Shown: positions 8,201 through 47,907, counted from the stretch's first letter. The stretch is 64,000 nt of DNA from an uncultured Mycoplasmatota bacterium (GCA_949288035.1 CASEIJ010000031.1:13929-77928); one strand, 5' to 3'. Numbers and translations are program-made. Notes: generated by a model not told the origin, from the sequence alone.

Positions 8201-8961
8201 CAAAACCATCAGTAGAAACGATTCAATTGTTGCAAACGATGTATGAACAACATCAAAAGGCTTTTGGTAAGGGGAATGAGGAATCTTTAGAAGATCTCTA
8301 TTTATTAGCAAAACATACTTATTTATTAGATCAAAAAGATAAAGCAGTGAATTTGTTTCAAGATTTATTAGAAGATGCTTCTTATATCGATGGAAAAGCA
8401 AGTGAAAAATATTTGACATATTTTATTAAACTTGTCGATTTTCTCTCTGAACAAAAAGATTATAAAAGACAATGTCCACTTAGTAAAGAATTGTGCTTTA
8501 TTCTATTAGAACATGTACCAAATTCGGTTACAACCATCATAGATCAATTAACACAATATGGAGAAGCACTTGCTCATTTAAATGAAAAAGAAAAAGCTTA
8601 TCATATTATAGATATATTAAAACAGTATTTATCGGTACAGCCATCTAAGACAGAAGCAATTATTCTAGGAATGATTTCCATTGCGAATGGAATGGAAGAT
8701 TATGCAAACTGTCTTGATTATAGTAAAGAGTTATGTAATTACTATCGTGATAGTAAAGCACCAGAATCGGATTTTTATGAGGGATTAGATAGAGCTTCTA
8801 TCTTTCAACATTTATTAGGAAAATATGATTCTCATCTTTATGACATCGATAAAATCTTGTATGAATATTATATAAAACAAATGGATTTTGAATCGGCAGA
8901 AAATGTTATGATCCGTTTAGAACGCGATAAAAAATATTTAAAGGAAGAAAATAAAGGATAG
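5212..8961 (+). CDS. STAND-class P-loop NTPase (NB-ARC/NACHT-like) with C-terminal TPR/helical repeat region
   Basis: Walker A 'GVGGIGKSTLL' at residues ~53-63. Walker B-like 'LVIFLDTYE'. Sensor-1-like 'WVIAGRE'. GxP-like 'HGTPIYL'. About 850 aa of TPR-like helical repeats follow. Own promoter (tgttataat, 5183-5191) and own terminator. Confidence 0.7.
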   Translation: MAKKIMRKEEIVRATRKFTDREQPRQVFFDKYDALKQQLPDVDEIYVITYYGVGGIGKSTLLRKLQEELQEKEKSPYYLHYDFETSQDMKTSLQFMKTKLEKDYKFSFHLFDLALYAYSNKIGDTVEKKEVQSYVEQSRTLSFIMDSIEDIPLIGMASKLVKLADSGIAVLKNITSNYKKELSQIEQDSAEDIYQNLPYYFSLDLEENVKKLNQPLVIFLDTYEKLVNEVQDTGYSISKDLWLRGERGPILNVPGILWVIAGREKIKWGESDKDWEDTLDQHILGDLSWKDTRSFLNEAGISDETLCKEIYELTHGTPIYLDICVSTYEILSSQGRSITIDEFGKNPDALIERYIRYMDHQSSEMVYLLSQIPLWNDDMIHEVGPKILPDFSYVLYEKIKKLSFVCNLETWSYIHKTVNDVFNANCPEIIRKKSVDILYHYYYDFLVNHSPVHPNYSYYLDGFLQVSLGYITMENAEEVLNHWKKIHDILDHACLYEKDHTLIQTIYEKWNDSFSQVENGYLLKLMHAYTLRDRNQELEQLEEVWTMIKDKEMSDVTLDVIQSLRDLYQQVHVNPMIAREIIDRLETSNLDSETKYYWLGFYYYLIHDLDCCSECFQIILYDKDITIIKKTQILGSISMMIPLSELRGIQGKILEFAITYSEEIQSQRTKLSLPTRFQFDLNMASLFSHNSSTIHLALDYINDAEKIYEEISDSSLYHITMIILKIEILKEIEPEKVKAYAEEKLQAIIKEGMPEQLDDQLFVLKLYHASEMTKEEISYVKELAKKYQHDLASFYQIVKIAIDDELFDISNPLTTELLEKVKKEGKDGFKIYEDIVLNLVPIAYQETYRDEIIDTFYQTYKKEYFNHPDILAPVLYRLMDIYAQEPLKKEIYMKELIQLYHRNHRPMECAEASILYAKFIGGADLEKAIELTTASIEIYDTVDGYDRQKQEAMVLLGELYLKKGEVEKAIHVLDKVISNSDYPEFGVQAFRLKAKYTKPSVETIQLLQTMYEQHQKAFGKGNEESLEDLYLLAKHTYLLDQKDKAVNLFQDLLEDASYIDGKASEKYLTYFIKLVDFLSEQKDYKRQCPLSKELCFILLEHVPNSVTTIIDQLTQYGEALAHLNEKEKAYHIIDILKQYLSVQPSKTEAIILGMISIANGMEDYANCLDYSKELCNYYRDSKAPESDFYEGLDRASIFQHLLGKYDSHLYDIDKILYEYYIKQMDFESAENVMIRLERDKKYLKEENKG

Positions 8962-9033: not shown

Positions 9034-10266
9034 ATGAGAAAGTATATATGGATCTTTTTTACGATTTTCTGTTTTTTTCCGGCTATTGTAATTGCTAGTG
9101 AAATACCTGAAGTTTCATCGGAAGCAGTTATTCTTTATCAGTTAAATGAAGATAAAGTAATCTATGAGAAAAATAGTGAAGAACAATTAGCACCCGCTAG
9201 TCTTACGAAAGTTATGACAACGTATGTCGCTTTAGAAAAAATCACGGATTTAGATCAAACAGTGACTCTAACAGATGAGATGTTTCAAGGACTTGTTGAG
9301 TCAAATGCCTCGGTTGCTGGTTTTTGTGTTGGAGAGACTGTGACATATCGTGATTTACTATATGGCTCTTTATTTCCTTCAGGAGGAGATGCGACCCAAG
9401 CCTTAGCCATTCTTCTATACGGTAATCAAGAAAACTTTGTTGCTAGGATGAATGAAAAAGCGGAAGAACTTGGTATGAAACAAACTCATTTTGAAAATGC
9501 GACAGGACTACCAGATGAGAATCATTATTCCACAGCTTCTGATATGGCATTACTTTTAAAGGAAGCACTTAAAAATAAAACGTTTTATGAATTATTTACA
9601 ACGGATGAATATACGACAAGTAATGGCAAACATACTTGGATTCCATCTTTTTTAAAAACGGCAAACACGTATGGTGTTTCTGTTGGTCCCATTTTAGGGG
9701 GAAAAACAGGATTTACCAATGAAGCTGGATACTGTTTAGCAAGTATCGCAACTTATGATGACGTCAATTACTTACTAGTTACATTACATGCTCCCACCGA
9801 TGGTAGTAGAGCAGGGGCTGTTATCAATAGTATGCGTATTTATAATTACTTTGGTACCAATTACGGATATCAAACCGTTGTTCAAAAAGATACACCTGTC
9901 TATACCGTAAAGACAAAGAAATATGCCGATAAAGATCAAGTTGCAGTGATACCACATGAAGCTATCTCATATTATTTACCAAATGATTTTCAAAAAGACC
10001 AATTAAAAATCTCTTATCAAGGTATAGAAGAAGCAACTTATGGAACTAAAAAAGGAAGTAAAGCAGGAACGGTTACATATGCTTATCAAGGTGAAACACT
10101 AGGTACAGTACCAGTTTATTTTTCACAAGATATTTCTTTTGATGGTGTGGCTTTTCTTACAATGAACTGGTATTGGATGGTTGGCGGATGTATTTTACTT
10201 GTTGTTATTTTGAAAATCACAAGAAAAAAACGCCGTAAAAAAAGACGTAAGAAACAGCGCAAATAA
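9034..10266 (+). CDS. D-alanyl-D-alanine carboxypeptidase (serine-type, PBP5-like)
   Basis: Signal peptide. 'SLTK' (SxxK), 'SGGD' (SxN-like) and 'KTGFT' (KTG) motifs. C-terminal TM helix plus poly-basic tail 'RKKRRKKRRKKQRK'. Confidence 0.8.
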   Translation: MRKYIWIFFTIFCFFPAIVIASEIPEVSSEAVILYQLNEDKVIYEKNSEEQLAPASLTKVMTTYVALEKITDLDQTVTLTDEMFQGLVESNASVAGFCVGETVTYRDLLYGSLFPSGGDATQALAILLYGNQENFVARMNEKAEELGMKQTHFENATGLPDENHYSTASDMALLLKEALKNKTFYELFTTDEYTTSNGKHTWIPSFLKTANTYGVSVGPILGGKTGFTNEAGYCLASIATYDDVNYLLVTLHAPTDGSRAGAVINSMRIYNYFGTNYGYQTVVQKDTPVYTVKTKKYADKDQVAVIPHEAISYYLPNDFQKDQLKISYQGIEEATYGTKKGSKAGTVTYAYQGETLGTVPVYFSQDISFDGVAFLTMNWYWMVGGCILLVVILKITRKKRRKKRRKKQRK

Positions 10267-10319
10267 TTGTTTGGATATAGAATTTGTGTTATACTAACAT
10301 GGAAAAAGAAGGGATTATT

Positions 10320-10922
10320 ATGAAATATTTAAATCGTATTTTAATTTTTTTATTCGTTGTCATAGATGCTTGGTATGTCTATGATCGATTAAGTCGTGGT
10401 GTTTATAATCGTTTAGAGATTGCTGCAGCTGTGATTCCAGTTTTACTAGGACCATGGTTGATTAAGAAAATCTTACATTATGAAATGTCAGAACCATTAA
10501 AATTTGTCTATTATTTATTTACATTTGCTTGTGTGATTTTAGGAAGTATTTTAAACTTATATAACATTCCAGAAACGATGTGGTTTGATAAAGTAACTCA
10601 TTTTATCTCAGGCTTTTTAACTTCTATCGTCGCTTTAATGTTGATTAAATATGGCAGGGTAACAGTAAAGAGCAAATGGTTTGTTCCAATCTTTATTATT
10701 ATATTTAGTATTGGAATTGCTGGATGTTGGGAATTTTTAGAGTATTTTATGGACATGATAACAGGAGGAGATACACAACATGTCTTAACAACTGGTGTCG
10801 ATGATTCCATGGGTGATATGTTAGTGGCAGCACTTGCCAGTATCATGTTTGCGATATATTATTACTATCAAGTATATTTCGCAAAAAAGAATCACATGGA
10901 AACATTAGTAGAACATTTATAG
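10320..10922 (+). CDS. Multi-pass membrane protein, unknown function
   Basis: About 6 predicted hydrophobic helices. Start chosen at ATG preceded by 'aaagaaggg'. Confidence 0.5.
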   Translation: MKYLNRILIFLFVVIDAWYVYDRLSRGVYNRLEIAAAVIPVLLGPWLIKKILHYEMSEPLKFVYYLFTFACVILGSILNLYNIPETMWFDKVTHFISGFLTSIVALMLIKYGRVTVKSKWFVPIFIIIFSIGIAGCWEFLEYFMDMITGGDTQHVLTTGVDDSMGDMLVAALASIMFAIYYYYQVYFAKKNHMETLVEHL

Positions 10923-10936
10923 AAAAGAGGCAGTAT

Positions 10937-11452
10937 ATGTTACAAGTAAAAAAGAATACCTTTCAAGTACAATATATAGATATGAATTTCAGACAAAGAG
11001 TATATGAAAATGAAAGCATTATTTCTATTATGATGGATATTTCTTTCTATCCTAGAGAATTAGATGGAGAAATTGTTTCAGGAACATTTTCAGTACTAGT
11101 CGATACCAATCAAATTAAAACAATCAAAGATTTAGAAAATAAAACATTTAATCAAGAAGTAAAAGTTTCGGCAGCAATATCTAGAAATGGAAGTTGGGAA
11201 CATTATGATGCTTATGATGGTATCTTAACTTTTATGAATTGCAATCATAATCAGATTGATTTTCATTTAGAAAGTAAGAAAAATGAACTAGAACTAGATG
11301 GTACAGCGACTATGATTAGTCTCTATTCAACCAGTAGTAATGAAGAAACATTAAAGAAATATTTTCAAATGGATGATTTTTATCCAACACCAATTAAGAA
11401 GAAAATACAAAATCGTGAAATTTTAAAATATTATGTAAAAAACGAAGCATAG
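10937..11452 (+). CDS. Hypothetical protein
   Basis: 171-aa ORF, soluble, no recognisable motif. Tight spacing with neighbours. Confidence 0.45.
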   Translation: MLQVKKNTFQVQYIDMNFRQRVYENESIISIMMDISFYPRELDGEIVSGTFSVLVDTNQIKTIKDLENKTFNQEVKVSAAISRNGSWEHYDAYDGILTFMNCNHNQIDFHLESKKNELELDGTATMISLYSTSSNEETLKKYFQMDDFYPTPIKKKIQNREILKYYVKNEA

Positions 11453-11468
11453 AAAAGCAGGTGTAATT

Positions 11469-12095
11469 ATGAGTCAAAGAATGAAGAAAACATTGTTGTT
11501 TGGTTCGATTGGATTGTTTTTATTATTGACTCTTTTCGTAGCACTGAAGTTAACAACACCAATTGATACAACTTTCTCAAAATGGGTGTTCCAACTTCAT
11601 AATCCTGTTTTCACTGCTTTTTTTCGTTTTATTACTGATTTTGGATATATTCAGATTTTACTAATATTATTAGTGATTATACTGATTGTATTTCACAAGT
11701 ATCGATTTGCTTATATTTTACCAATTCATGTCACTATCTCTGTTATTTTTAATATGATTTTAAAAAATATTTTCGCAAGACCTCGTCCTGAGATGATTCG
11801 TTTAATTGATGAAGTAGGTTTTAGTTTCCCATCAGGACATGCGATGGTAACGATGGTAGCTTATGGATATTTAATATATGTTGTACACCATTATATTCAA
11901 CAGAAATGGTTAAGATATAGTCTGATTGCTTTCCTAGTTTTTATTATTGTCTCAGTAGGTCTTTCCCGTATCTATTTAGGTGTTCATTATCTAACCGATG
12001 TATTAGCAGGATATAGTATTTCTCTTTTCTATTTGTTAGTTGTAACAAAAATGAAGATTTTTTCACTAGGTGATCATCATGAAAGTATGGATTGA
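11469..12095 (+). CDS. PAP2 family phosphatase (phosphatidic acid phosphatase type 2)
   Basis: PAP2 motifs 'KNIFARPRP', 'PSGH', 'SRIYLGVHYLTDV'. Confidence 0.85.
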   Translation: MSQRMKKTLLFGSIGLFLLLTLFVALKLTTPIDTTFSKWVFQLHNPVFTAFFRFITDFGYIQILLILLVIILIVFHKYRFAYILPIHVTISVIFNMILKNIFARPRPEMIRLIDEVGFSFPSGHAMVTMVAYGYLIYVVHHYIQQKWLRYSLIAFLVFIIVSVGLSRIYLGVHYLTDVLAGYSISLFYLLVVTKMKIFSLGDHHESMD

Positions 12096-12513
12096 TGGGG
12101 ATGCTTGTCCTGATATTTCTGATATTTTAGATTTATGTCATCATTATCAAACCCCGGTATGTATTGTTTGTGATGATTCTCATGAATTTCAAAATACAGA
12201 AGAACTAAAAATAGTTAGTACTGGATTTCAAAGTGCGGATATGTATCTTTTAAATCATATTGAAAATCATGACTTTGTCATTACAGGAGACTATGGAGTT
12301 GCTACCATTGCTCTAGCAAAGCAATGTACCACCTTACATCCCAATGGAACATTTTATACAAAAGATAATATGGACCAATTGTTATTTCAAAGACATATGT
12401 ATAGTAAAATGAGAAGACAAAATAAAAAGACACCACATAGTAAAAAACGCAGTTCTGATGTTCGTTTACAATTTTTAAATCAAATTGAATCTGTTTTAAA
12501 GATGAGTAGGTGA
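12079..12513 (+). CDS. YaiI/YqxD family protein (UPF0178)
   Basis: 'KVWIDGDACPD' and 'DFVITGDYGVA' match the UPF0178 YaiI family. Confidence 0.75.
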   Translation: MKVWIDGDACPDISDILDLCHHYQTPVCIVCDDSHEFQNTEELKIVSTGFQSADMYLLNHIENHDFVITGDYGVATIALAKQCTTLHPNGTFYTKDNMDQLLFQRHMYSKMRRQNKKTPHSKKRSSDVRLQFLNQIESVLKMSR

Positions 12514-20642: not shown

Positions 20643-21455
20643 ATGTTATATTTACAAGTCATTATTTTAGGAATTATACAAGGAATTGCAGAATTTTTGC
20701 CAATTTCTTCTAGTGCTCATTTAATTATATTCCGTGATATTTTTGGGATTGGTAGTTCTATGGGAGCAGATATTACAATGGCCTTTGATATTGCGCTTCA
20801 TTTAGGAACGTTACTAGCAATTGGTTTATTCTTTTTTAAAGACTTCATCAACATTTTAGTGAATGGATTTACCAAACCGAAAAGTAAAGATGGAAAATTG
20901 ATGTGGTTTATTTTACTTGCATGTATTCCAGCTGCTATTTTTGGTATTCTATTAGAAGAAACGATAGAGAATGCACTACGTGGTAATTTCGCATTAATTG
21001 CCTTTGCTCTGATCTTTATGGGAATTATTATATATTTATGTGACTATTATTTCAAACAGAAAAAAGGATTTGAAGAAATGACTTGGTTGGATGCTCTTGT
21101 CATCGGTTGTGCGCAGGTTTTCGCATTAATTCCGGGTTTTTCTCGCAGTGGAACTACCATTGCTGCAGCACGTGCTAGAGGAATGAATCGTGAAGATGCT
21201 GCTAAATTCTCATTTTATTTATCAGCACCAGTCGTAGCAGGAGCAGTATTACTTACATTTTTAAAAGATTCTACAATGACTTTGATTCAAGCCAATATAG
21301 GAATCTTTGTACTTGGTGTATTCATATCTTTCTTAGCTGGATTGATCTGTATTAAATTTTTATTAAAATATTTAAAATCACATGATTTTAAAATATTTAT
21401 GTGGTATCGAATTATTTTAGGTATTATCGTGTTACTTTGTTTATTGGTAATGTAA
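20643..21455 (+). CDS. uppP: Undecaprenyl-diphosphate phosphatase
   Basis: 'EFLPISSSAHL' and 'PGFSRSG' UppP/BacA motifs. Upstream extended -10 'tggtataat'. Confidence 0.9.
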   Translation: MLYLQVIILGIIQGIAEFLPISSSAHLIIFRDIFGIGSSMGADITMAFDIALHLGTLLAIGLFFFKDFINILVNGFTKPKSKDGKLMWFILLACIPAAIFGILLEETIENALRGNFALIAFALIFMGIIIYLCDYYFKQKKGFEEMTWLDALVIGCAQVFALIPGFSRSGTTIAAARARGMNREDAAKFSFYLSAPVVAGAVLLTFLKDSTMTLIQANIGIFVLGVFISFLAGLICIKFLLKYLKSHDFKIFMWYRIILGIIVLLCLLVM

Positions 21456-26960: not shown

Positions 26961-28496
26961 ACTTCAGTTCTAAGGAGTGAAAATTAATTTTTACTCCTTT
27001 TATGTCAAAAAATAGAGAAGAAAAAAACTTTTTCGCAAAATTAGAATTATTGAAAAAAGCAAAACCAACAAAAAAAGATTCTGTAAACTCCCCAAAAAAC
27101 CAGAATTAGTATTTATTATTAGAAAAAAATGTTATATAATAAAAGTGTCGAACCTTAATTGAAAATTACGATTAAGAGAGACATTAATATGTGAGGAAAT
27201 AAGTTCGTTTAGTATGGCGAAACTTATTTCTTTTATTTTGCCTTGAAAAGGTTTTACTAAAGTAGATCCTAGATCTAATAATTGACGAATTGTATGAGCA
27301 AATTGAGTAAAGAAGTAATGCGCTTTCATAGCATTATAATTCAGTGAACACATATGAGAAATGTTAAATAAAATATTTTTTTGATTGTTGAAACCATTGT
27401 TTTCTATTTTCCATCTCTGTCGTCCCATCATAATTAAAGTTTTAACATTATTGTTTGTAACAGATAAACTAGTTGTAAAAGTAAATATTTTATCTTTTTT
27501 ACACTTTATATGTTCCACAAATCGAATGATATTAAATTTGTATTGATTGTATTGGTAATCATTCACAACGAAATAACCTTTATGATTAGAACCAGAGTTA
27601 ATTGAAATCAAACCATCAAAATCTTGATTGACTGTTTTTAATTTATCAGATTTCAAACGAAACATATAATCCCAATTGTTATTTAAACAAAGTTTGATAA
27701 AAGGACCAGAAGCATATAAAGCATCTCCAGTTATAATGAAAGAAAGTTTTGGGAAATTTTTCTTAAGTCTTACAGCCATTCTTTTGAAAGCCTTCATTTC
27801 ACAATCTTGCTTTTTAAGATTTACCACATTCGGATTTGGATTTTCAATAAATTCAGAATCAATGCTTAAAACAAAAGAACCAAAAATAAGTTTTGCTTCT
27901 AAAACTTGATGTTCATAGGAAAAATGACCATCCGAATGTTTTCTTACTAAACAGTGATCACAATGTTTTTGTTTGAAAAAAACTAATCCAGTGCCATCAA
28001 TTAGAAGTTGAAATTTACCATGATATCTAAATTTATCGAACATTTTAGATCGAATTAGAGTGTAAACAATATATTTTTGAATTTTACGAAGTTCTTCAAT
28101 GTTTAAATCATCAAAGACATCATTGATTGTATCGTAATGAGGAAGGTCATCAATTTTAGAATTCGTTATTTTTGCCAATGTTTCAATTGTTAATTCGTTG
28201 TTTAATTTGTTTGTCAAAGAATTCATGGTAGTAATACCACATAGAAGAGCAAATAACCGAGTAATACAAATTACTTTTATATCATAAGTAATTTTTCCCT
28301 ATTGTCGAATATCTGTTAAGTTTTCAAACATAATAAATAATTTTGGTAAATATTTATCTATGATATTATATAGATCACAAACTAATGATTTATCTTTTTT
28401 TAATTCTCTTTTTTCTTTTCTTGTCATACAATCAACCACCTTTTATATATTATATCAGATATTTGATTGCGAAAAAGTTTCACTCCTTAGAGCTGT
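26961..28496 (-). mobile_element. Insertion sequence (IS4/IS5-like DDE family) with 18-bp terminal inverted repeats
   Basis: Left end 'cagttctaaggagtgaaa' (26965-26982) is the reverse complement of right end 'tttcactccttagaGctg' (28479-28496) with 1 mismatch. Encloses the transposase frame. Confidence 0.75.
27132..28226 (-). CDS. DDE transposase (reading frame extends upstream to 28427 through an in-frame TAG)
   Basis: 'RWKIENNGF' motif typical of IS4/IS5-type DDE transposases. Upstream in the same frame, 'MTRKEKRELKKDKSLVCDLYNIIDKYLPKLFIMFENLTDIRQ' then TAG (28299-28301), then 'GKITYDIKVICITRLFALLCGITT' before this ATG. Confidence 0.7.
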   Translation of the reverse strand: MNSLTNKLNNELTIETLAKITNSKIDDLPHYDTINDVFDDLNIEELRKIQKYIVYTLIRSKMFDKFRYHGKFQLLIDGTGLVFFKQKHCDHCLVRKHSDGHFSYEHQVLEAKLIFGSFVLSIDSEFIENPNPNVVNLKKQDCEMKAFKRMAVRLKKNFPKLSFIITGDALYASGPFIKLCLNNNWDYMFRLKSDKLKTVNQDFDGLISINSGSNHKGYFVVNDYQYNQYKFNIIRFVEHIKCKKDKIFTFTTSLSVTNNNVKTLIMMGRQRWKIENNGFNNQKNILFNISHMCSLNYNAMKAHYFFTQFAHTIRQLLDLGSTLVKPFQGKIKEISFAILNELISSHINVSLNRNFQLRFDTFII

Positions 28497-38484: not shown

Positions 38485-39126
38485 ATGTTAGATAAAAAAG
38501 CGTTATATCAAATTAGTTCAGGATTATATTTAGTCTCTAGTAAAGGGGAAGAGAAACAAGCAGGTTGTATTATTAATACACTGATGCAAGTAACAAGTCA
38601 ACCTGTACAAGTATCTATTACAATAAATAAAGATAATTATACAACCGATATGATTTTAAAAAGTAAAACATTTCATGTGACATCACTTTCAGAAAATGTC
38701 GATATGAATGTGATTGCTACATTTGGCTTTCAAAGTAGTAAAGAGATTGATAAATTTCAATCATTTGAAACAAAATATGATACATTAGATAACCCGTATA
38801 TTGTAGAGGGAATGAATGCTGGTTTTACTTGTAAAGTAGTTCATACCTTAGATGTGGGAAGTCATATCATAATTGTTGGAGAAGTAGTAGAAAGTGAAGT
38901 TTTAAATCAAGATAATAGTATGACTTATGCTTATTATCACGATGTAAAAAAAGGAACTTCTCCTAAAAAAGCACCAACCTATCAAGAAGAAGTAAAAACT
39001 GACAAGAAGACTAAATGGAGATGCAAAATATGTGGTTATATTTATGAAGGGGATGAACTTCCTGCTGATTTTATTTGTCCAATTTGTGGACAGCCAGCGA
39101 GTATGTTTGAAAAAGTAGAAAATTAA
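38485..39126 (+). CDS. Flavin reductase-like domain protein fused to C-terminal rubredoxin
   Basis: N-terminal flavin-reductase-like split barrel 'GLYLVSSKGEEKQAGCIINTLMQV'. C-terminal 'CKICGYIYEG...CPICGQP' rubredoxin CxxC pair. Confidence 0.7.
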   Translation: MLDKKALYQISSGLYLVSSKGEEKQAGCIINTLMQVTSQPVQVSITINKDNYTTDMILKSKTFHVTSLSENVDMNVIATFGFQSSKEIDKFQSFETKYDTLDNPYIVEGMNAGFTCKVVHTLDVGSHIIIVGEVVESEVLNQDNSMTYAYYHDVKKGTSPKKAPTYQEEVKTDKKTKWRCKICGYIYEGDELPADFICPICGQPASMFEKVEN

Positions 39127-39191
39127 TTCTACTTTTTTTGCATATCTCCTTACTTTTTACATATAGTGAAAAGTAATTGGAGGAAATATAT

Positions 39192-39470
39192 ATGAAAAGA
39201 AAAGAGTGGATCAAACAATATCAGAGTTTAAAACAAGAATTATTATTATCACAAGAAAAGAGAAATAATATACTTACTTCAAATGCAGTTTCTACGATTG
39301 TTTCTGCTACCATTTTCGGAATGAATGAAGCATTTGAAGGAAATGATTTAATTTCTTGTTGTTCTATTTTTAATATGATTCTTTTATTAAGTAATGATAT
39401 ATGGATTTGGACGGAAAACCGGAAATGGAATGAAGATTGTAAAGTATTTATGAAAAAGAGAAAGAAGTAG
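39192..39470 (+). CDS. Small hypothetical protein
   Basis: 92-aa ORF with strong RBS 'ggagga' 8 nt upstream. No homology recognised. Confidence 0.3.
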   Translation: MKRKEWIKQYQSLKQELLLSQEKRNNILTSNAVSTIVSATIFGMNEAFEGNDLISCCSIFNMILLLSNDIWIWTENRKWNEDCKVFMKKRKK

Positions 39471-39518: not shown

Positions 39519-40187
39519 ATGTATCAGATTTTAATTGTTGAGGACGATGTGATTATGCAACAAAGTTTAAAAACATTATTAGAAGAACATGGTTATCAAG
39601 TTTTTATTTTAAAAGATTTTGAACATGCATATGATGAATTTCAAGCTCACTATCAAGATGTCGATTTAATTTTATTAGATATTCAAGTTCCATATATGAA
39701 TGGAGAATTACTGTTGAAAGAGATTCGTAAGAATAATAATATTCCAGTCATTATGGTTACCAGTCGTAATAATGAGTTAGATGAGATGTTATCAATGAGT
39801 TATGGAGCAGATGATTATGTTACCAAGCCATATAATCCAAGTATCTTACTGCTTCGTATTGAAGCGATCTTAAGAAGAAGTAAAAAAGAAGTACAAACCC
39901 TTACTTATCATCATATTCGATTTAATTTACAAAAGGGGCAATTAGAAACAGCAAATAAAGTCATTCCATTATCGAAAAATGAAATGCGTATCTTTCACTT
40001 TTTACTACAACATCAAGGAGAGATTGTATCACGAGAAGATATTATGAAATATTTATGGGATACAGAAGAATTTATCGATGATAATACATTAACTGTCAAT
40101 ATTAGTCGGATTAGAAAAAGATTACAAGAAGCGGGAATTGAAAATGCCATTGAAACAAAAAAAGGATTAGGATATATTTTATTATGA
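39519..40187 (+). CDS. OmpR-family response regulator (BceR-like)
   Basis: Receiver 'ILIVEDD...LLDIQVPYMNG'. Winged-helix C-terminus 'LTVNISRIRKRL'. Confidence 0.85.
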   Translation: MYQILIVEDDVIMQQSLKTLLEEHGYQVFILKDFEHAYDEFQAHYQDVDLILLDIQVPYMNGELLLKEIRKNNNIPVIMVTSRNNELDEMLSMSYGADDYVTKPYNPSILLLRIEAILRRSKKEVQTLTYHHIRFNLQKGQLETANKVIPLSKNEMRIFHFLLQHQGEIVSREDIMKYLWDTEEFIDDNTLTVNISRIRKRLQEAGIENAIETKKGLGYILL

Positions 40188-41206
40188 AAAGAATAGAATA
40201 TTTAAAAGATCGCTTCTTTTATCTTTTTAGTATTTTTCTCTTTCTCATATTCATGATATGGTTATTTTATATTTTTAAAATTAATTTCTTATGTGCCTTT
40301 TTAATTATTTTTTTCTTCTTATTTATCTTTGTTTTTTGGCTTTTCTACGATTATTGGAAGCGTAAACAATTTTACGATGGTGTAATGGACAAGTTAAATC
40401 GCTTACCACAAAAGTATTTATTGGTAGAATTAATGGAACAACCTTCTTTTTTAGAAGGAGAATTATTATATCGAATTTTAATAGAAACAGATAAAGATAT
40501 GAATGAACATATTAAAACTTATGAAAGAAAATTAAAACAATTTAAAGAATATTTAGAAATGTGGGTTCATGAAGTAAAGACACCACTTGCTCGTAGTTTT
40601 TTATTATTACCGAAAAATGAGAAATTAAAAGAATTAGAAAAAGCATTGGTAGAGATTGAAAATAATGTAGATCAAGTGTTATACTATGCTCGTTCAGAAG
40701 TTACTGAGAAAGACTATTATATTCATCCCACTCATTTACAAACAGTGGTAAATAAGGTGATGGTTAAAAATCAAGATGCTTTTATTTATGGAAAAGTACA
40801 ATTGGAATTAAAAGATCTAGATATTACTGTCAATACGGATTCAAAATGGTTAGAATTTATCTTAAATCAATTCATTCAAAATAGTTTAAAATATCGTAAA
40901 GAAAAAGGGACTCGTATTAAAATATCACAAGAAAAACATAAAGATGAGATTTATTTATCAGTATGGGATAATGGCATTGGTATTAAAAAGTCTGAACTTC
41001 CAAGAGTATTTGATCAAAGTTTTACAGGGAGTAATGGACGATTGGGAAAAGCGTCAACTGGTATGGGACTTTATATTTGTAAAAACTTATGTGAAAAATT
41101 AGGACATCAAATTATGATTACCTCAAAAGAAAATGAATATACAAAAGTTACGATTATATTTGGTAAAAATAATTATTATGATGTATTAGAAAGAGGGAAA
41201 TTATGA
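40184..41206 (+). CDS. Intramembrane-sensing histidine kinase (BceS-like)
   Basis: Two N-terminal TM helices with minimal loop. H-box 'WVHEVKTPLA'. ATPase 'DNGIGI' and 'GMGLYICK'. Confidence 0.85.
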   Translation: MKRIEYLKDRFFYLFSIFLFLIFMIWLFYIFKINFLCAFLIIFFFLFIFVFWLFYDYWKRKQFYDGVMDKLNRLPQKYLLVELMEQPSFLEGELLYRILIETDKDMNEHIKTYERKLKQFKEYLEMWVHEVKTPLARSFLLLPKNEKLKELEKALVEIENNVDQVLYYARSEVTEKDYYIHPTHLQTVVNKVMVKNQDAFIYGKVQLELKDLDITVNTDSKWLEFILNQFIQNSLKYRKEKGTRIKISQEKHKDEIYLSVWDNGIGIKKSELPRVFDQSFTGSNGRLGKASTGMGLYICKNLCEKLGHQIMITSKENEYTKVTIIFGKNNYYDVLERGKL

Positions 41207-41694
41207 AACAGATTATTTACGATAGTAATACAGGAAATACAGAGTTATTAGCCACTAAGATCTATCAATTATATCCAGATAGTATCATTTCTCGTATCGA
41301 TCAAACAAAAGAAGTCATTGGCGATATCTTATATTTAGGTAGTTGGTGTGATAAAGGAAATATGACAGAAGCCATGCAGCATTTGGTACATACTTTACAC
41401 CATAAAAAGATATTTGTATTTGGAACTTGTGGGTTTGGTAAAGATCAAAATTACTTTGATATGATTGCTAAAAGAATGATATCTTCTATTCCAAATGATA
41501 ATGAAGTAATTGGTTATTTTATTTGTCAAGGAAAAATTGATCCGAAGTTTCAAAAGAAATACGAAGACATGTTAAAGGATGAGAAAACAAGAAAACAAGC
41601 TGAGATCATGTTAGATAACTTTAAGCTTGCTGAATCACACCCTGATCATGATGATTTGCAAGCTTTAGAAAATAAATTAAAAACATATGAATAA
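41203..41694 (+). CDS. Flavodoxin-like fold protein
   Basis: 'MKQIIYDSNTGNTELLA' resembles the flavodoxin N-terminal phosphate-binding loop (T/S-x-T-G-x-T). 163 aa. Confidence 0.5.
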   Translation: MKQIIYDSNTGNTELLATKIYQLYPDSIISRIDQTKEVIGDILYLGSWCDKGNMTEAMQHLVHTLHHKKIFVFGTCGFGKDQNYFDMIAKRMISSIPNDNEVIGYFICQGKIDPKFQKKYEDMLKDEKTRKQAEIMLDNFKLAESHPDHDDLQALENKLKTYE

Positions 41695-43858
41695 TGATTT
41701 AATGATCATTAAGAAGTATTATGGTGAGAAAATGAGTCATTTATGTCGGACTCTTTTTCCTACTATATTAGAAGAAAAGGGGTTATTACCACAGTTATTA
41801 TTCAGTCATTTTCATCCAAGTAGATTTTTATATCATGATATCGTAAAACAAAAGAAAGAAACTGCATTTCAATTATTTATAAACGAACAATTACCGCAGA
41901 ATTATATTCAAAAGAAAACGATGACTAAAACACCTAAAGAATTATTAAACGAAGTAGGTTACGATTTGTTTGAATGTCATAGTGAAGAAGAGATACAATC
42001 ATTTCGTAAATACTATCAGCCAGGAGAAGAATTGTGTACGTTTGCTGGAGGTAGATTAAAAAATTGTTATGTCTTTTTTGCTGTGAAACAAGATGTTGAT
42101 GATATCAAAAGAGAAGATTTTATTCATCCAGAAAGAGATGATTTATATGGTACTTCTGTTTTAAGTATTCAATTTACTAGAAATGATGCGCACTGTCTTT
42201 CTATTAAAAATCGATATAATGATATCGTTAAAAATCCTGACGCTACATTTTCCAATAATTTAGATTATATTATACCAGGATTAACAGAAAGCTTTGCGGA
42301 TACTTATGGTATGGTTCAAAAAAGTTTTCATTCAGCATTTGATTTAGAAGGCTATGTCATAGCAGAAGATGGAAAGTTTTATAAATATAATTATGAGATT
42401 AATAATACTTATTATTGTACAGATAATATTATAATTGATGGCAATCGAAAAGTAATTCACTATCCGAAAGAACGTTATATCATTTTTGATTACTTTATTT
42501 TAGATATGAAAGAAAAGAAAATCGAATTATTTGATTCACGAATACAGGATAGTTTGATTCATACAATTGGGATATTTGATAAAGTGGAGGTTCAAAATCA
42601 ACAAGACGGTAAAATACTTTCTTTTTATCAAAATAATCATGAAAAGATAAAGATTCAGTTAAATGAAACACAAAATCTTATATTTTATCAAAATTTATTA
42701 CAAACGGAATTAGATGATTGGTTCTTGTATTATGATCTTTCTTTGGAAGAAATGAATTGTCCCAATGTAGAAAAGATCGGAAATAAAGTTTTGACGAATA
42801 ATCGTGGTTGTAAGTCATTATCTTTTCCTAAATTAATTTCAGTTGGGAATCATTTTATGAGTGAAAATCATATTTTGAAATCTTTTCAAGCATTGAGATT
42901 AGAATCGGTAGGGGATTACTTCTTGCAAAGTAATTTTAAATTAGAATCATTATCTTTTCCTAATTTAGAATATATTGGGAATCGCTTTTTAATATATCAT
43001 TACAAGTTTAAGGAATTATCTTTTCCATCCCTTCGTGAAGTAGGGGATAATTTTATGAATTCTAGTTATTTAGTTGAAAGAGTTAATATGCCTCATATTG
43101 TACGTATTGGCAATAAGTTTTTAGCTCATAATACGGAATTAAAGGATATGTATGCACCTATGTTGTGCAACATCGGTAATAACTTCTTAGATCAAATTAA
43201 AGCCATGAATGAGGTATCATTCCCTAAATTAGAACGTGTAGGAAATTCTTTTCTCGAACAATTAGAAACTACAAATATGCTAGTTTTACCAAGTCTTATA
43301 TCTATGGGGAATCAATGCTTGAAAGAGTTAAAGAAACCTCAAATTACTTCCTTTCCAGAATTAAAGAAAGTAGGGAATCACTTTTTATATGGCTCTAAAA
43401 TAATTTCTATAGATGCTCCAAAACTAGAAATAGTAGGAAACAATGTACTCACTTTCGCAACGCAATTACAAGTATTAAAAACTCCATTATTAACTGTAGT
43501 AGGAGACCATTTTTGTAAGTATTCTACTTCTTTAATGAATACAGACTTTTCAAGTTTACATCAAGTAGGAGATCATTTTATGGACGCAAATACAGTGTTG
43601 TGTCTCTTATATTGTCCACAATTAGAATATGTTGGTAGTTATTTTTTATCTCATAATAAAAGACTTGAAGATGTATATATTCCAGAATTACTCTTTCACG
43701 GGCAACATTTCTTAGAACAATTTTTATATGATGATTCGGTATCTAATATTGAAGAAAAATCAGCTTATCATACAATGTATGGTTATTCTATCATTGATAT
43801 CGAAGATAAAGTGCATACAGAGAAAAAATATATCAAGACGTTTTCAAAACAGAAATAA
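41687..43858 (+). CDS. Cytoplasmic protein with about 18 tandem 22-aa leucine-rich (BspA/LRR_5-like) repeats
   Basis: C-terminal half is periodic: 'SFPNLEYIGNRFLIYHYKFKEL / SFPSLREVGDNFMNSSYLVERV / NMPHIVRIGNKFLAHNTELKDM ...' (consensus xFPxLxxVGNxFLxxNxxLxxh). No signal peptide. N-terminal ~350 aa unknown. Confidence 0.6.
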   Translation: MNNDLMIIKKYYGEKMSHLCRTLFPTILEEKGLLPQLLFSHFHPSRFLYHDIVKQKKETAFQLFINEQLPQNYIQKKTMTKTPKELLNEVGYDLFECHSEEEIQSFRKYYQPGEELCTFAGGRLKNCYVFFAVKQDVDDIKREDFIHPERDDLYGTSVLSIQFTRNDAHCLSIKNRYNDIVKNPDATFSNNLDYIIPGLTESFADTYGMVQKSFHSAFDLEGYVIAEDGKFYKYNYEINNTYYCTDNIIIDGNRKVIHYPKERYIIFDYFILDMKEKKIELFDSRIQDSLIHTIGIFDKVEVQNQQDGKILSFYQNNHEKIKIQLNETQNLIFYQNLLQTELDDWFLYYDLSLEEMNCPNVEKIGNKVLTNNRGCKSLSFPKLISVGNHFMSENHILKSFQALRLESVGDYFLQSNFKLESLSFPNLEYIGNRFLIYHYKFKELSFPSLREVGDNFMNSSYLVERVNMPHIVRIGNKFLAHNTELKDMYAPMLCNIGNNFLDQIKAMNEVSFPKLERVGNSFLEQLETTNMLVLPSLISMGNQCLKELKKPQITSFPELKKVGNHFLYGSKIISIDAPKLEIVGNNVLTFATQLQVLKTPLLTVVGDHFCKYSTSLMNTDFSSLHQVGDHFMDANTVLCLLYCPQLEYVGSYFLSHNKRLEDVYIPELLFHGQHFLEQFLYDDSVSNIEEKSAYHTMYGYSIIDIEDKVHTEKKYIKTFSKQK

Positions 43859-43885
43859 AACCTTACAATTTTGTAAGGTTTTGTT
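43857..43885 (+). terminator. Rho-independent terminator
   Basis: 'aaaccttacaa'/'ttgtaaggtttt' hairpin plus T-run. Confidence 0.6.
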
Positions 43886-43946
43886 ATATCAATGAATGGT
43901 AAAATAAAAGTGAAATGTTTATACTGAAAGCAGAAAGGGTGATTTT

Positions 43947-44714
43947 ATGGAATCTGTTTTAAAAATAGAACATATTGAAAAATATTATGGAAATAAAGGA
44001 AACTTAACAAAAGCGATTGATGATATATCGTTTGATGTTGAAAAACAAGAATTTGTTGCGATTATGGGAGCAAGTGGAAGTGGTAAAACAACACTTTTGA
44101 ATTGTATTTCAACGATCGATCGTGTTACTAGTGGACACATTTATATGAACGGAGAAGATATTACAAAATTAAAAGGGAATGCTTTAAATCGTTTTCGCCG
44201 TGAAGAATTAGGATTTATATTTCAAGACTTCAATTTACTTGATACTTTAACTGCTTATGAGAATATCGCTCTAGCTTTAACCATTCAAGGAGAGAAAAGT
44301 AAAAATATTGAAAAGAAAGTATTGGCGATTGCTAAAAAATTGAATATTGTTGATGTATTGAAAAAATATCCATATCAAATGAGTGGGGGACAAAAACAGA
44401 GAGTAGCAAGCGCTAGAGCAATGATTACAAATCCAATGTTAGTACTTGCTGATGAACCAACAGGAGCATTAGATAGTAAATCAGCACGTATGTTACTTGA
44501 AAATTTTGAATATTTAAACAAAGAATTAAAAGCAACTATTTTAATGGTAACTCATGATGCTTTTACAGCGAGTTATGCTTCCCGTGTTATTTTTATTAAA
44601 GATGGCAAATTATTTCATGAATTACGTCGTGGAGATGATACAAGAAAAGAATTTTTCGATAAAATTATCGATGTTGTTACCCTCTTAGGAGGTGACTTAA
44701 ACGATGTTATTTAA
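43947..44714 (+). CDS. ABC transporter ATP-binding protein (BceA-like)
   Basis: 'GASGSGKTT', 'MSGGQKQRVASARA' and 'LADEPTGALD'. Confidence 0.85.
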   Translation: MESVLKIEHIEKYYGNKGNLTKAIDDISFDVEKQEFVAIMGASGSGKTTLLNCISTIDRVTSGHIYMNGEDITKLKGNALNRFRREELGFIFQDFNLLDTLTAYENIALALTIQGEKSKNIEKKVLAIAKKLNIVDVLKKYPYQMSGGQKQRVASARAMITNPMLVLADEPTGALDSKSARMLLENFEYLNKELKATILMVTHDAFTASYASRVIFIKDGKLFHELRRGDDTRKEFFDKIIDVVTLLGGDLNDVI

Positions 44715-46770
44715 ACTATCTATAAAAAATATGAAAAAAAGTATGAAAGATTATGCAATATACTTTTTTACATTGATCTTAGGTGTTTCTATTTTCTATA
44801 TTTTTAATTCCATGGAAACACAAACGGTATTTTTAAATGTAACATCTAGTACGAGAGAAATTATTCAACTCATGATTGGAATGTTATCTGGTGTGAGTGT
44901 ATTTGTATCTTTTATATTAGGATTTTTAATTATATATGCAAATCAATTTTTAATGAAACGAAGAAAAAAAGAATTTGCTATTTATATGACTTTAGGAATG
45001 AGTAAGAGAAAAATATCTCAAGTATTATTAATTGAAACTCTTTTAATTGGTACGATATCATTAATTATCGGATTATTTTTAGGAGTAGGATTGTCCCAAT
45101 TTATGTCTGTATTGGTCGCTAATTTATTTGAAGCAGATCTATCAGAATTTACTTTTGTTTTTTCACAAGAAGCAATGTTAAAAACACTTGTTTATTTTGG
45201 TATCATGTATCTATTAGTCATGGTATTTAATACAATTTCAGTCGGTCGTTGCAAATTAATTGATTTATTGCAGGCAAATAAAAAGAGTGAAAAAGTAAAG
45301 TTAAAAAATCCGATTATATGTACGATTTTGTTCATACTATCTGTAGGTGCTTTAGCATACTGTTATTACCAAGTTACAGCCAATGCTATGACATTAAATA
45401 TTTCAAGTATTGGTAAATTAATGATTGTGGGAGCTATATCAACATTCTGTTTATTCTGGTCTTTATCTGGTATTTTATTAAAAATATTGATGTCTCTGAA
45501 ACGTCTGTATTATAAAAATTTAAATATGTTTGTATTAAGACAATTAGCTAGTAAAGTAAATACAACTGTATTTTCAATGACAGTAATTTCCCTGATGTTA
45601 TTTTTAACGATAGGTATTTTATCTAGTGCCTTATCATTAAAAAATTCTATGACAGCTAATTTAAAAGAATTAGCACCAATTGATTTTCAAGCTTCTAAAG
45701 AATGGGATTTATATCATATTCCTGCTGATAATCAACGACAATATGTTTATACAGAAGAAGAAAAACAAGATTCTTTAGTTCCTATCACAGAGACTTTTAA
45801 GAAATTAAATATCAAAGAATCATACTTTAAAGACGTGGTTGTCTCTCATTATTATGGAACAGATGAAGTAACATATGAAGAGACTTTAGGAACAAAAAGA
45901 GAATATGTCTCACAAAATTTTCCAGCAATCCATTGGGATTATCGTGAATTAATGATGTCAATTAGTGAATATAATGAGCTAGCTAAATTATTGGGAAGTC
46001 CAACTTATCAATTAAAGAATGATGAGTATATTGTAATTGCTGATTTTGATCAGATGGTATCAATTCGAGATGAAATTTTAAAGGAAAAACCTGATTTAAC
46101 GTTTGGTGGTAAAACGTATCATTCAAAATATGATCATACTGTAGAAGGGTTTACAGAAATGAGTTCTAACCATATTAATACAGGAATTTATATTGTTCCA
46201 GATGATGCAGTCAATCAATCTATGTTAATGGAAGAAATCTTTTCAGCAAACTATCATGCCGATACGAAAGAAGGAAAATATGAGATTGAAAATGCCATTC
46301 AAGAACCAGCAGGAGAAGGATATGATGAAGGACTTACAACATTAAATGCAACTAGTAAAATATCTATCTATGAAGCAAGTGTAGGACTTGGAGCAATGGT
46401 TACCTTTATTGGTTTATATCTAGGAATTATCTTCTTGATATCGAGTGCTGCAATTCTAGCTTTGAAGGAATTATCTGAAAGCTCTGATAATAAAGATCGT
46501 TATATGATTCTAAGAAGAATTGGTACAGATGAAAAGATGATACGTCATGCTTTGTTTTTACAGATTGCATGTTTCTTCCTATTACCATTGATTGTGGCAA
46601 TGATACATTCAATTTTCGGAATTCAATTCGCCAATATTATCTTATCAACTTTTGGAGATGAACAACTTTTACCATCTATTATTATGACAGCAATTTTCTT
46701 AGTGGCCATTTATGGTGGATATTTTATGATTACTTATTTCTGTAGCAAAAATATTATTAAAGAAAAATAA
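44704..46770 (+). CDS. ABC transporter permease, FtsX-like (BceB-like, 10 TM with large extracellular loop)
   Basis: 688 aa. 4 TM, then a ~200 aa hydrophilic loop, then 6 TM. Overlaps the ATPase gene. Confidence 0.8.
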   Translation: MLFKLSIKNMKKSMKDYAIYFFTLILGVSIFYIFNSMETQTVFLNVTSSTREIIQLMIGMLSGVSVFVSFILGFLIIYANQFLMKRRKKEFAIYMTLGMSKRKISQVLLIETLLIGTISLIIGLFLGVGLSQFMSVLVANLFEADLSEFTFVFSQEAMLKTLVYFGIMYLLVMVFNTISVGRCKLIDLLQANKKSEKVKLKNPIICTILFILSVGALAYCYYQVTANAMTLNISSIGKLMIVGAISTFCLFWSLSGILLKILMSLKRLYYKNLNMFVLRQLASKVNTTVFSMTVISLMLFLTIGILSSALSLKNSMTANLKELAPIDFQASKEWDLYHIPADNQRQYVYTEEEKQDSLVPITETFKKLNIKESYFKDVVVSHYYGTDEVTYEETLGTKREYVSQNFPAIHWDYRELMMSISEYNELAKLLGSPTYQLKNDEYIVIADFDQMVSIRDEILKEKPDLTFGGKTYHSKYDHTVEGFTEMSSNHINTGIYIVPDDAVNQSMLMEEIFSANYHADTKEGKYEIENAIQEPAGEGYDEGLTTLNATSKISIYEASVGLGAMVTFIGLYLGIIFLISSAAILALKELSESSDNKDRYMILRRIGTDEKMIRHALFLQIACFFLLPLIVAMIHSIFGIQFANIILSTFGDEQLLPSIIMTAIFLVAIYGGYFMITYFCSKNIIKEK

Positions 46771-46785
46771 GAGGGGAGTGAAAGC

Positions 46786-47907
46786 ATGGATAGTTATCTA
46801 GAAGCAATTCAAACATCAGTATTATTTTTCCCATTGATTGCATTGTTATTTACAACTCCCTATATGATTAGTCAGTACCATAAGTATGGAGCAATCCATA
46901 CTTTTCGTACTTTGATTATTTATTCCTTTATTTTATATTTATTAACTGCTTATTTTTTAGTTATTTTACCACTACCAACCATTTCAGAAGTAGCACAATT
47001 AACAACACCACGTACACAGCTTATTCCTTTTTCTTTTATTGCTGATTTTATCACACATACCTCATTTCAATGGAATGATCCAAGTACTTATTTACAAGCA
47101 TTGAAAGAACCTTATTTTTATCAAGTAATTTACAATTTAATATTAACGATTCCCTTTGGAATTTATTTACGTTATTATTTTAAGTGTAATTTCAAAAAGA
47201 CTGTATTATTTACATTTTGTTTAACCTTATTTTTTGAAGTAACACAACTTACTGGTTTATATGGAATTTATCCTAGAAATTATCGTTTATTTGATGTTGA
47301 TGATTTAATGATTAATACATTAGGAGGAGTAGTTGGTTATTTTCTAGCTGGTATGTTACAGAAAGTTATTCCGACACGTGATCGAATTGATATAGAGTCA
47401 TATCAACTTGGAAAACATGTATCTCCATTACGTCGTATGATTACTTTTGGTTGTGATAGTTTCCTTTATTTTATATTTGTAATTGGATACACAATTGGTA
47501 TGAATCCAAGACATAGTTTTCTAATTATGTTTTTGGTTTATTATTTTATATTACCATTGTGTTTAAACGGACAAACTATTGCTGAAAAATTTTTTCATTT
47601 ACAAATTGTCACTACAGATCACTTAGAAGTCGTAAAGAAAAATTGGATACTTCGTCGTATTTTATTTTATCTTTTATATTTTGTTTTCACATTTTTACTA
47701 GCATTTTTATATGTTCAAATTACTGATTTCTTTAAGATGACAAATATGGTTTCTTGGGCATTTGGTTTTTGTTGTATGATGATTATAGTCGTATTTTATT
47801 GTTATTCTTTCATTCGCTTTTTCTTTTTTCACAAACCTCTTTTATATGAGACAATGAGTCATACAGCATACAAAAGTACAATTCCAGTCGAAGAAGATAA
47901 CACATAA
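46786..47907 (+). CDS. VanZ-like family membrane protein (with extra C-terminal TM domain)
   Basis: 'GLYGIYPRNYRLFDVDDLMINTLGGVVGYFLA' VanZ signature. Additional C-terminal multi-TM region. Confidence 0.6.
   Translation: MDSYLEAIQTSVLFFPLIALLFTTPYMISQYHKYGAIHTFRTLIIYSFILYLLTAYFLVILPLPTISEVAQLTTPRTQLIPFSFIADFITHTSFQWNDPSTYLQALKEPYFYQVIYNLILTIPFGIYLRYYFKCNFKKTVLFTFCLTLFFEVTQLTGLYGIYPRNYRLFDVDDLMINTLGGVVGYFLAGMLQKVIPTRDRIDIESYQLGKHVSPLRRMITFGCDSFLYFIFVIGYTIGMNPRHSFLIMFLVYYFILPLCLNGQTIAEKFFHLQIVTTDHLEVVKKNWILRRILFYLLYFVFTFLLAFLYVQITDFFKMTNMVSWAFGFCCMMIIVVFYCYSFIRFFFFHKPLLYETMSHTAYKSTIPVEEDNT

Follow-up and report, generated by a model that had tools for sequence, protein, structure and literature searches.

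Two additional genes joined to the regulatory half of a Bce-type module

The window analyzed here is a 64,000-nt stretch of DNA from an uncultured gut bacterium of low GC content within the Bacilli, whose nearest genome carries the label Acholeplasmataceae; all coordinates are counted from its first letter. Between 39.1 and 47.9 kb, with every gene on the plus strand, lies a Bce-type peptide-antibiotic module in which two non-canonical genes, encoding a flavodoxin and a leucine-rich repeat (LRR) protein, are attached to the genes of the two-component system (TCS). The series begins with an OmpR-family, BceR-type response regulator (RR; 39519-40187; Response_reg and Trans_reg_C domains), for which an open upstream ATG at 39495 offers an alternative start, and an intramembrane-sensing, BceS-type histidine kinase (HK; 40184-41206; HATPase_c). 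The 163-aa flavodoxin (41203-41694; Flavodoxin_3) and a 723-aa protein with LRR_5 repeats on its C-terminal half (41687-43858) come next. Beyond them are a BceA-type ABC ATPase (43947-44714; ABC_tran), a 688-aa BceB-type permease identified by its FtsX domain and its hydropathy (44704-46770), and a 373-aa VanZ-domain membrane protein (46786-47907; PF04892), the last gene of the predicted regulated ABC operon. The RR and HK genes overlap by 4 bp, the HK and flavodoxin genes by 4 bp (ATGA), and the flavodoxin and LRR genes by 8 bp. From these stop/start overlaps and the absence of intergenic gaps, we infer that the four genes are co-transcribed.

An initial annotation of the locus had called it a Bce-type module with two unusual genes embedded in the RR-HK unit. 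Its open reading frames (ORFs), coordinates and 4-8 bp overlaps were all present exactly as given, and its domain identities were supported by Pfam and NCBIfam for the RR, HK, flavodoxin, LRR half, ABC ATPase, permease and VanZ protein. The RR, the sensor-less HK, BceA and BceB with the VanZ protein, and a predicted operator described below all fit a Bce-type assignment, and the overlapping stop and start codons bear out the attachment of both non-canonical genes to the RR-HK unit.

Hydropathy places two transmembrane (TM) helices in the HK, at residues 7-25 and 35-53 with a loop of ~9 residues between them, and none further. Both helices fall within the first 55 residues, and the protein has no extracytoplasmic sensor domain. 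In NCBIfam it comes closest to SapS, but its 213 bits are below the equivalog cutoff of 550; the HK is therefore a relative, not an ortholog, of any characterized kinase. The domains and topology of the downstream proteins likewise agree with the earlier description of a BceAB-like pair followed by a VanZ-like protein. At the level of hydropathy, the permease has ~7 TM segments, a hydrophilic domain of ~255 aa (residues 313-568) and 3 further TM segments. The VanZ-domain protein matches PF04892 at 91 bits and has several TM segments. It is roughly double a minimal VanZ protein in length, with extra C-terminal TM segments, and one of its homologs (L094) has a weak recorded match to the RDD family. 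YsaA, a VanZ-domain protein of a Bce-like module in Lactococcus lactis, provides a precedent for its presence here (PMC7438565).

The hairpin before the transporter genes is a predicted operator

We gathered related module loci via the LRR protein (genome contigs), the HK (metagenome contigs and a protein search) and the flavodoxin, and scored all of them by one tblastn table. The survey comprises 13 HK lineages, whose identities are given throughout relative to the window HK. Across all module lineages, the BceA ATPase is 73-100% identical. A VanZ gene lies 3' of BceB in 8 lineages, and most lineages with an HK identity of 52% or more keep it.

A terminator had been proposed at 43857-43885, between the LRR gene and the ABC genes. 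An RNA hairpin does fold stably at this place (43854-43885; -15.5 kcal/mol, z = -4.4). The hairpin core, ACCTTACAATTTTGTAAG (43860-43877), is an exact fit to AnnTTACnAnnnnGTnAG, the published binding consensus for promoters under Bce-like regulators (PMC10858260), and this match is unique in the 64 kb, where 0.2 are expected. We delimit the predicted BceR-type palindromic operator to 43860-43879, with the core CTTACAATTTTGTAAG at 43862-43877. In 12 of the 13 lineages the distance from the palindrome to the ABC start codon is 84-94 nt, irrespective of what lies upstream: some loci have the stop codon of the LRR or the flavodoxin gene there, L084 has a separate canonical terminator, and L078 has another hairpin. 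Because the consensus is matched exactly and the distance to the ABC start is fixed whatever precedes it, we read the hairpin as primarily the predicted ABC operator and regulator-binding site. The feature in the earlier annotation thus stands, and its label as a terminator gives way to that of an operator. As RNA, the same hairpin may still cause partial or weak termination of the TCS transcript.

Two candidate -10 elements for the regulated ABC promoter follow on the plus strand, TGgTAAAAT at 43897-43905 and TATACT at 43921-43926, the latter aligning with a perfect TATAAT in L040. A match to isrJ at 43787-43882 scored 29.7 bits against an Rfam threshold of 37 and coincides with the operator hairpin, and we rejected it as almost certainly spurious. 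The Rfam scan for RNA elements returned nothing beyond this sub-threshold match.

In characterized Bce systems, it is established that sensing by the transporter leads to signaling by the kinase. By analogy, the BceAB-type transporter in the window would sense a peptide antibiotic and activate the sensor-less intramembrane kinase, which would phosphorylate the OmpR-type regulator; the regulator would then bind the palindrome at 43860-43879 and induce bceA-bceB-vanZ (PMC7438565, PMC10858260).

Transcription of the RR-HK-flavodoxin-LRR unit probably begins at a promoter near 39138-39167, where a candidate sigma-70-type sequence, TTGCAT-N18-TATAGT, can be read on the plus strand. A consensus scan for promoters and terminators was uninformative in this AT-rich, 28% GC DNA (87 promoter sites against 72 expected). 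Immediately 5' of the candidate promoter, an AT-rich hairpin with a T-run (39110-39137) closes a gene that fuses a Flavin_Reduct domain to a rubredoxin-like domain (38485-39126) and lies directly upstream of the TCS operon. Between the promoter and the RR, 48 nt upstream of the latter, is a plus-strand ORF of 92 aa (39192-39470) with a GGAGGA ribosome-binding site. It has zero matches in Pfam, PADLOC and PHROG, is restricted to the nearest lineages and evolves fast, with 64% identity where the HK has 87%. A second operator was absent upstream of the TCS and across the window when up to 2 mismatches were allowed (3 matches against 3.6 expected). This fits a TCS operon that is not autoregulated, as in graXRS (PMC3128592), and the operon in the window appears to be of this kind.

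The gap between the TCS and ABC operons is filled in five ways

The slot between HK and BceAB differs markedly among lineages. The flavodoxin and LRR genes are both present in the window lineage (100% HK identity; also L002), at 87% (L004, L099-L101) and at 86% (L001, with the LRR gene frameshifted in a G-run). At 94%, 13 contigs (L089-L093), two of them longer than 1 Mb, carry only the flavodoxin. Twelve contigs at 84-85% (L078, L102-L104) have the flavodoxin together with an unrelated ORF of 54-55 aa that is followed by a hairpin and lies between the flavodoxin and the operator (L078 11575-11742; L102/L103 6573-6740; L104 6579-6743). The slot is empty at 71% (L105) and 65% (L084). It holds the flavodoxin alone at 64% (L080), where synteny is otherwise identical on both sides, and at 52% (L094-L096), with a 4-bp HK overlap. 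One lineage at 50% (L040) has two tandem LRR-family genes with neither flavodoxin nor VanZ, and three further lineages at 47.5-50% show plain RR-HK-BceAB.

The gap between HK and operator therefore has five different fillings: nothing, flavodoxin, flavodoxin with the 55-aa ORF, flavodoxin with LRR, and LRR with LRR. This diversity suggests that the gap between the apparently constitutive TCS operon and the regulated ABC operon is permissive, a landing site where passenger genes can settle.

The flavodoxin is old in the clade and has been lost within it

The 163-aa protein matches PF12641 (Flavodoxin_3) at 156 bits against a threshold of 27.5, and its flavin mononucleotide (FMN) phosphate loop, S8-x-T10-G11-N12-T13 (S8-N-T-G-N-T13), is conserved in 11 homologs. 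Its gene carries a Shine-Dalgarno sequence of its own, AGAGGGA, and hydropathy shows neither a TM segment nor a signal peptide. A scan against PHROG gave a generic flavodoxin match only, and PADLOC gave none. The protein also scores 173 bits on the NCBIfam model for BilS (cutoff 155), a flavodoxin-like partner of the bilirubin reductase BilR with a presumed role in electron transfer (PMC10769871). The operon and the 30 larger ORFs scanned in the window yielded no gene for BilR, BilQ or another Old Yellow Enzyme, and the related loci likewise yielded none for BilR or an Old Yellow Enzyme. Since the BilR partner is missing and the genomic partner is instead a histidine kinase, we did not adopt the BilS name, which is probably an over-extension of the NCBIfam model.

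The flavodoxin gene is present in 7 of 13 lineages (HK identity 100, 94, 87, 86, 84, 64 and 52%) and missing from those at 71, 65, 50, 50, 50 and 47.5%. The gene-neighborhood comparison of BceS-like kinases proposed in the initial annotation thus finds it to be a common and conserved member of one sub-clade, and a known function in that position did not emerge. Where both are present, flavodoxin and HK identities fall together (89/94, 87/87, 76/85, 61/64 and 48/52), and the ratios of nonsynonymous to synonymous substitution rates (dN/dS) are 0.089 for the flavodoxin and 0.093 for the HK. The 4-bp stop/start overlap between the two genes occurs in the window, L089, L080 and L094, and elsewhere they are separated by a gap of 2-8 nt. 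Two lineages nested in the flavodoxin-bearing clade, at 71% (L105) and 65% (L084), have lost the gene, and their modules are apparently intact. We found no release of constraint on the HK after this loss: 0 of 141 invariant HK positions changed in both lineages without flavodoxin, against 0-4 in controls. At 47-50% HK identity, RR-HK-BceAB without extra genes is the arrangement seen, and the nearest flavodoxin homolog outside the module adjoins a hydrolase gene.

These patterns are consistent with a long-resident passenger, an FMN electron carrier that has been kept functional and handed down with the HK across a fairly large clade. The gene for the redox partner that it most likely serves would lie elsewhere.

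The LRR gene appears to be a late, dispensable arrival

The whole 723-aa protein has no Pfam match. Its C-terminal half (residues 346-723) matches LRR_5 at 62 bits against a cutoff of 27.7, and the repeat register resolves fifteen 22-aa repeats of the BspA/TpLRR type at residues ~355-680 (42749-43726, plus strand). Family alignments delimit an N-terminal domain of ~300-345 aa (41687-42721, plus strand). The family profile matches the structures 4fs7 (E = 6.6e-24), 4gt6, 4h09, 4fdw and TpLRR 6mlx. AlphaFold2 (AF2) models the protein with a mean predicted local distance difference test (pLDDT) score of 86.7, and in Foldseek the full model matches 4fs7, 4fdw, PcpA 4cp6, 4h09 and 6mlx at a probability of 1.00. 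By a simple hydropathy test the protein has no TM segment, signal peptide or anchor, the maximum over 19 residues being 1.32, below the threshold. The repeats and the lack of a hydrophobic segment both agree with its earlier description as a cytoplasmic LRR-like protein.

The LRR gene is missing from the closest relative of the window, L089, whose HK is 94% and permease 98% identical, in all 13 contigs of that lineage. The 28 nt before the operator in L089 are identical at 21 of 28 positions to the 3' end of the window LRR gene (L089 7505-7560; also L090-L093). The true LRR ends of L001 and L004 score 20 and 23 in the same comparison, and other loci that lack the gene score 6-14. Random 28-mers have a mean of 8.2, with at least 21 reached in 0.02% of 5,000. 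Because 21/28 is far above both this null and the other LRR-less loci, we read the 3' remnant of ~25 nt in L089 as the deletion scar of an LRR gene. The gene is also missing from the 84% lineage (12 contigs) and from the 64% lineage. In L001, a frameshift in a GGGGG run (7763-8001) splits it into ORFs of 39 and 644 aa, a pattern that might reflect pseudogenization, phase variation or a faulty assembly. In the window, no Shine-Dalgarno sequence was found before the LRR gene, and its dN/dS of 0.16 (0.20 in the repeats) is the highest in the locus. On account of the scar, the absences, the frameshift, the lack of a Shine-Dalgarno sequence and the dN/dS, the gene gives the impression of a recent arrival that can be dispensed with, though it is still functional where intact.

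The LRR gene belongs to a large and tandemly amplifying family

The window LRR protein is one of >2,700 homologs, which fall into 1,164 clusters at 50% identity. Among species-representative genomes, metagenome-assembled genomes (MAGs) from uncultured gut Bacilli, Mollicutes and Tenericutes contain more than 575 family loci. Members are ~360-860 aa long, and the conserved domain stands at the N-terminus in all 150 of the cluster representatives listed, out of 1,164. This N-domain of ~300 aa is far better conserved than the repeats and has ~50 invariant residues, including C20, R21, C97, C117, R123, R142, R150, D152, YGTSV154-158, SIKNRYN172-178 and C244. The invariant Cys, Arg and Asp, together with the YGTSV and SIKNRYN motifs (residues 1-305; 41687-42600), look like a metal or active site, not a scaffold. 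The N-domain has no Pfam match. Its AF2 model (pLDDT 86.6) has no significant fold relative by Foldseek in the PDB (best E = 0.14) or BFVD (best E = 0.017), and we did not rely on matches to viral "PcfJ-like" proteins, which are too weak (E = 0.03, TM-score 0.2).

In several uncultured Bacilli MAGs, the family forms head-to-tail arrays of 8-11 paralogs per ~22 kb (L016, L021, L026, L034). The flanks of family genes are diverse, with 142 Pfam families among 115 flanks, mostly housekeeping (PcrA/UvrD, RpoD, GyrB), and no single partner gene recurs consistently. A TCS is a neighbor in 1 of ~70 independent family loci (L040). Verified FtsX permeases account for 3 of 117 genes flanking the family in other loci and for 1 of 603 genes that do not flank it (uncorrected p = 0.015); after orthologous loci are merged this shrinks to ~2 independent events and is not robust, and ABC ATPases are not enriched beside family genes (p = 0.13). 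A recurrent 699-aa neighbor and the proteins encoded at L067:11622-14693 and L075:3976-7077 are UvrD/PcrA helicases, not FtsX proteins. A single conserved PcrA synteny accounts for most of the helicase adjacency, and one clade has just 12 nt between the end of PcrA/UvrD and the LRR gene. An ORF of ~95 aa with no Pfam match lies ~30-80 nt 3' of LRR-family genes in a number of loci (L009 12222-12512, L012, L015, L017, L024, L031, L032, L050, L075 and L076). Scans for a defense or phage origin gave zero PADLOC matches for the LRR protein, the flavodoxin, the small ORF and the VanZ protein, and only a generic flavodoxin match in PHROGs.

Setting of the module in the window

The window is ordinary chromosome, with genes for SMC, a tRNA synthetase, FTHFS, DnaG, RpoD, ComEC, FtsW/RodA and UppP, and GC content is uniform (27-31%). 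The UppP/BacA gene (20643-21455), for an undecaprenyl-pyrophosphate phosphatase associated with bacitracin resistance, lies 23 kb from the module and has no Bce-type operator before it. A DDE transposase of an insertion sequence element stands among the housekeeping genes (27132-28226, minus strand). Elsewhere are an ORF of 1,249 aa with zero Pfam matches at E <= 1e-5 (5212-8961) and a gene for a Fic/DOC-domain protein (898-1893, minus strand).

Comparison with known systems

The closest systems are the BceRS-BceAB modules of Firmicutes, such as BceRS-AB and PsdRS-AB of Bacillus subtilis, SapRS-AB of Enterococcus faecalis and PsdRSAB/ApsRSAB of Lacticaseibacillus paracasei. With these the window shares the OmpR-type RR, the sensor-less two-TM kinase, the BceA ATPase, the permease of ~690 aa with its large TM7-TM8 loop, and the palindrome fitting AnnTTACnAnnnnGTnAG before the ABC genes (PMC10858260). 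It differs in having two cytoplasmic genes at the 3' end of RR-HK and a VanZ gene after the permease. Bce-like modules with lineage-specific extras are known from YsaDCB/TCS-G with YsaA in L. lactis and from YxdJK-LM-YxeA in B. subtilis. The L. lactis module shares with the window a multi-TM VanZ-domain protein (YsaA, 354 aa), and its small secreted protein YsaD modulates signaling (PMC7438565). Whereas YsaD and YxeA are small, secreted and encoded in the transporter operon, the extra proteins of the window are cytoplasmic and encoded in the TCS operon.

A nearer parallel to the flavodoxin is GraX of Staphylococcus aureus, whose gene is co-transcribed with graRS and required for signaling; GraXRS mutants are hypersensitive to oxidative stress (PMC3128592). 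In GraXRS-VraFG, as in the window, a cytoplasmic protein with a nucleotide- or cofactor-binding type of fold is encoded next to the RR and HK genes, directly upstream of a BceAB-type transporter. However, GraX is sugar-epimerase-like and encoded upstream of graRS, whereas the protein in the window is a Flavodoxin_3 member encoded downstream of the HK, with neither GraX homology nor an epimerase-family match in Pfam or NCBIfam. The need for GraX in signaling was shown experimentally, while sister lineages of the window have lost the flavodoxin. With BilS, the flavodoxin shares its domain and passes the family model, but it lacks bilR and bilQ and is partnered with a histidine kinase.

The repeat type and solenoid fold of the LRR protein are those of BspA/TpLRR proteins, including Tannerella BspA, Treponema pallidum TpLRR, pneumococcal PcpA and Bacteroides surface LRR proteins. 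Expansion of paralogs in a small-genome, host-associated organism is common to the window family and to "Ca. Mycoplasma girerdii", which has 26 BspA-type copies (PMC4206474); BspA-type proteins are also expanded in Trichomonas vaginalis. BspA-type proteins are exposed at the surface via a signal peptide, lipid anchor or C-terminal TM segment, whereas hydropathy finds none of these in the window family, and they lack its N-domain of ~300 aa, which has no relative in Pfam, the PDB or BFVD.

Are the additional proteins part of the signaling system?

From the gene content, the overlaps, the identity and conservation of the operator, the patterns of presence and absence, the scar and the selection regimes, all observed directly, we arrive at an ordinary Bce-type peptide-antibiotic module that carries two passengers on its RR-HK transcript, neither of them a signaling part; we give this reading a probability of about 0.6. 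The lack of a signaling role for both proteins is something we infer, as is the sensing mechanism. The flavodoxin would be the old passenger. The LRR gene would be the young one, drawn from a large, mobile, tandemly amplifying family; a copy may have inserted between the flavodoxin and the ABC operator before a shallow clade diversified, and may now be in the course of being lost again.

Several observations weigh against this reading. The HK/flavodoxin overlap persists down to 48% flavodoxin identity, which is a classic signature of functional coupling, and accessory proteins of Bce modules are known in GraX (PMC3128592) and YsaD (PMC7438565). The intact LRR gene is still under purifying selection (dN/dS 0.16). 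In addition, L040, with an HK at 50% identity, has its two LRR-family copies exactly between HK and BceAB (9089-12462). These rank 25th and 37th of 159 by closeness to the window copy, and the slot seems to have been entered twice independently, which could reflect selection rather than chance. Orthology of the window and L040 copies was considered and is unsupported, as the N-domain identities are star-like (50-62%) and resolve poorly.

A doubtful but tenable alternative is that the flavodoxin is a third component of the TCS in the manner of GraX, a cytoplasmic FMN protein that would bind the HK and tune the kinase by redox or flavin status. Its conserved position directly after the HK, its co-divergence with the HK at an equal dN/dS, its own Shine-Dalgarno sequence and its preserved FMN loop would all be expected of such a component, and the oxidative-stress phenotype of GraXRS and the modulation by YsaD lend it precedent (PMC3128592, PMC7438565). 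Yet the two nested losses, at 71% and 65%, left modules apparently intact and the 141 HK positions unchanged, the gene is missing from all sampled kinases at ~50% identity, and it belongs to Flavodoxin_3 rather than to the GraX family. Wide synteny is conserved in this clade anyway, which makes adjacency of flavodoxin and HK weak evidence, and the nearest homolog outside the module is paired with a hydrolase. The initial annotation had suggested accessory signaling components; for the flavodoxin, this is partly supported by its conservation as an operon member in the sub-clade and weakened by the nested losses without change in the HK. We think it very unlikely that the 723-aa protein is a module adaptor or scaffold acting on the kinase or BceAB and recruited independently in the window clade and L040. 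LRR genes do lie between HK and BceAB in two lineages whose HKs are 50% identical to each other and whose copies are not closest relatives, the window gene is under purifying selection and overlaps the flavodoxin gene by 8 bp, and FtsX permeases occur among the LRR flanks. Set against this, the gene has been deleted with a scar in the closest relative, is absent from two close lineages, is frameshifted in a fourth and has no Shine-Dalgarno sequence. In ~70 other loci the family stands among unrelated housekeeping genes or in long arrays, and the adaptor role proposed in the earlier annotation is not supported. One chance Bce-module neighbor among 74 LRR loci is neither surprising nor compelling, and the FtsX and ATPase counts do not change this.

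Still less probable, in our view, is that the flavodoxin and the upstream flavin-reductase/rubredoxin protein form an oxidative-stress electron-transfer unit between whose genes the TCS merely sits, the association being positional. The Flavin_Reduct-rubredoxin fusion at 38485-39126 is found together with the flavodoxin in the window, L089, L004, L078 and L080, and lies 3 kb upstream in L095, and flavodoxins of the BilS type are presumed to partner reductases in electron transfer (PMC10769871). But L105 keeps the flavin reductase (77%) without the flavodoxin, and the flavin-reductase gene is a separate transcription unit closed by its own hairpin and T-run.

We consider a further reading unlikely, which has two separate parts: that the flavodoxin is a redox- or flavin-sensing counterpart of GraX docking on the kinase, so that the Bce module of a clade of gut Bacilli would combine antibiotic flux with redox state, and that the N-domain/BspA-repeat family, with its ~1,160 clusters, comprises undescribed, signal-peptide-less, tandemly amplified binding proteins that can be wired into such modules. 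If the flavodoxin did act as a cofactor protein of the kinase, it would be the second cofactor-binding protein of the cytoplasm, after the unrelated GraX, to control a Bce-type kinase that lacks a sensor domain, and it would tie redox state to peptide-antibiotic resistance in abundant uncultured gut bacteria. On current evidence, the locus is a variant of a well-known system and of modest interest, mainly showing the gap between TCS and ABC operons as a landing site for passenger genes. The most intriguing by-product is the N-domain/BspA-repeat family itself, whose arrays and invariant Cys, Arg and Asp residues merit study.

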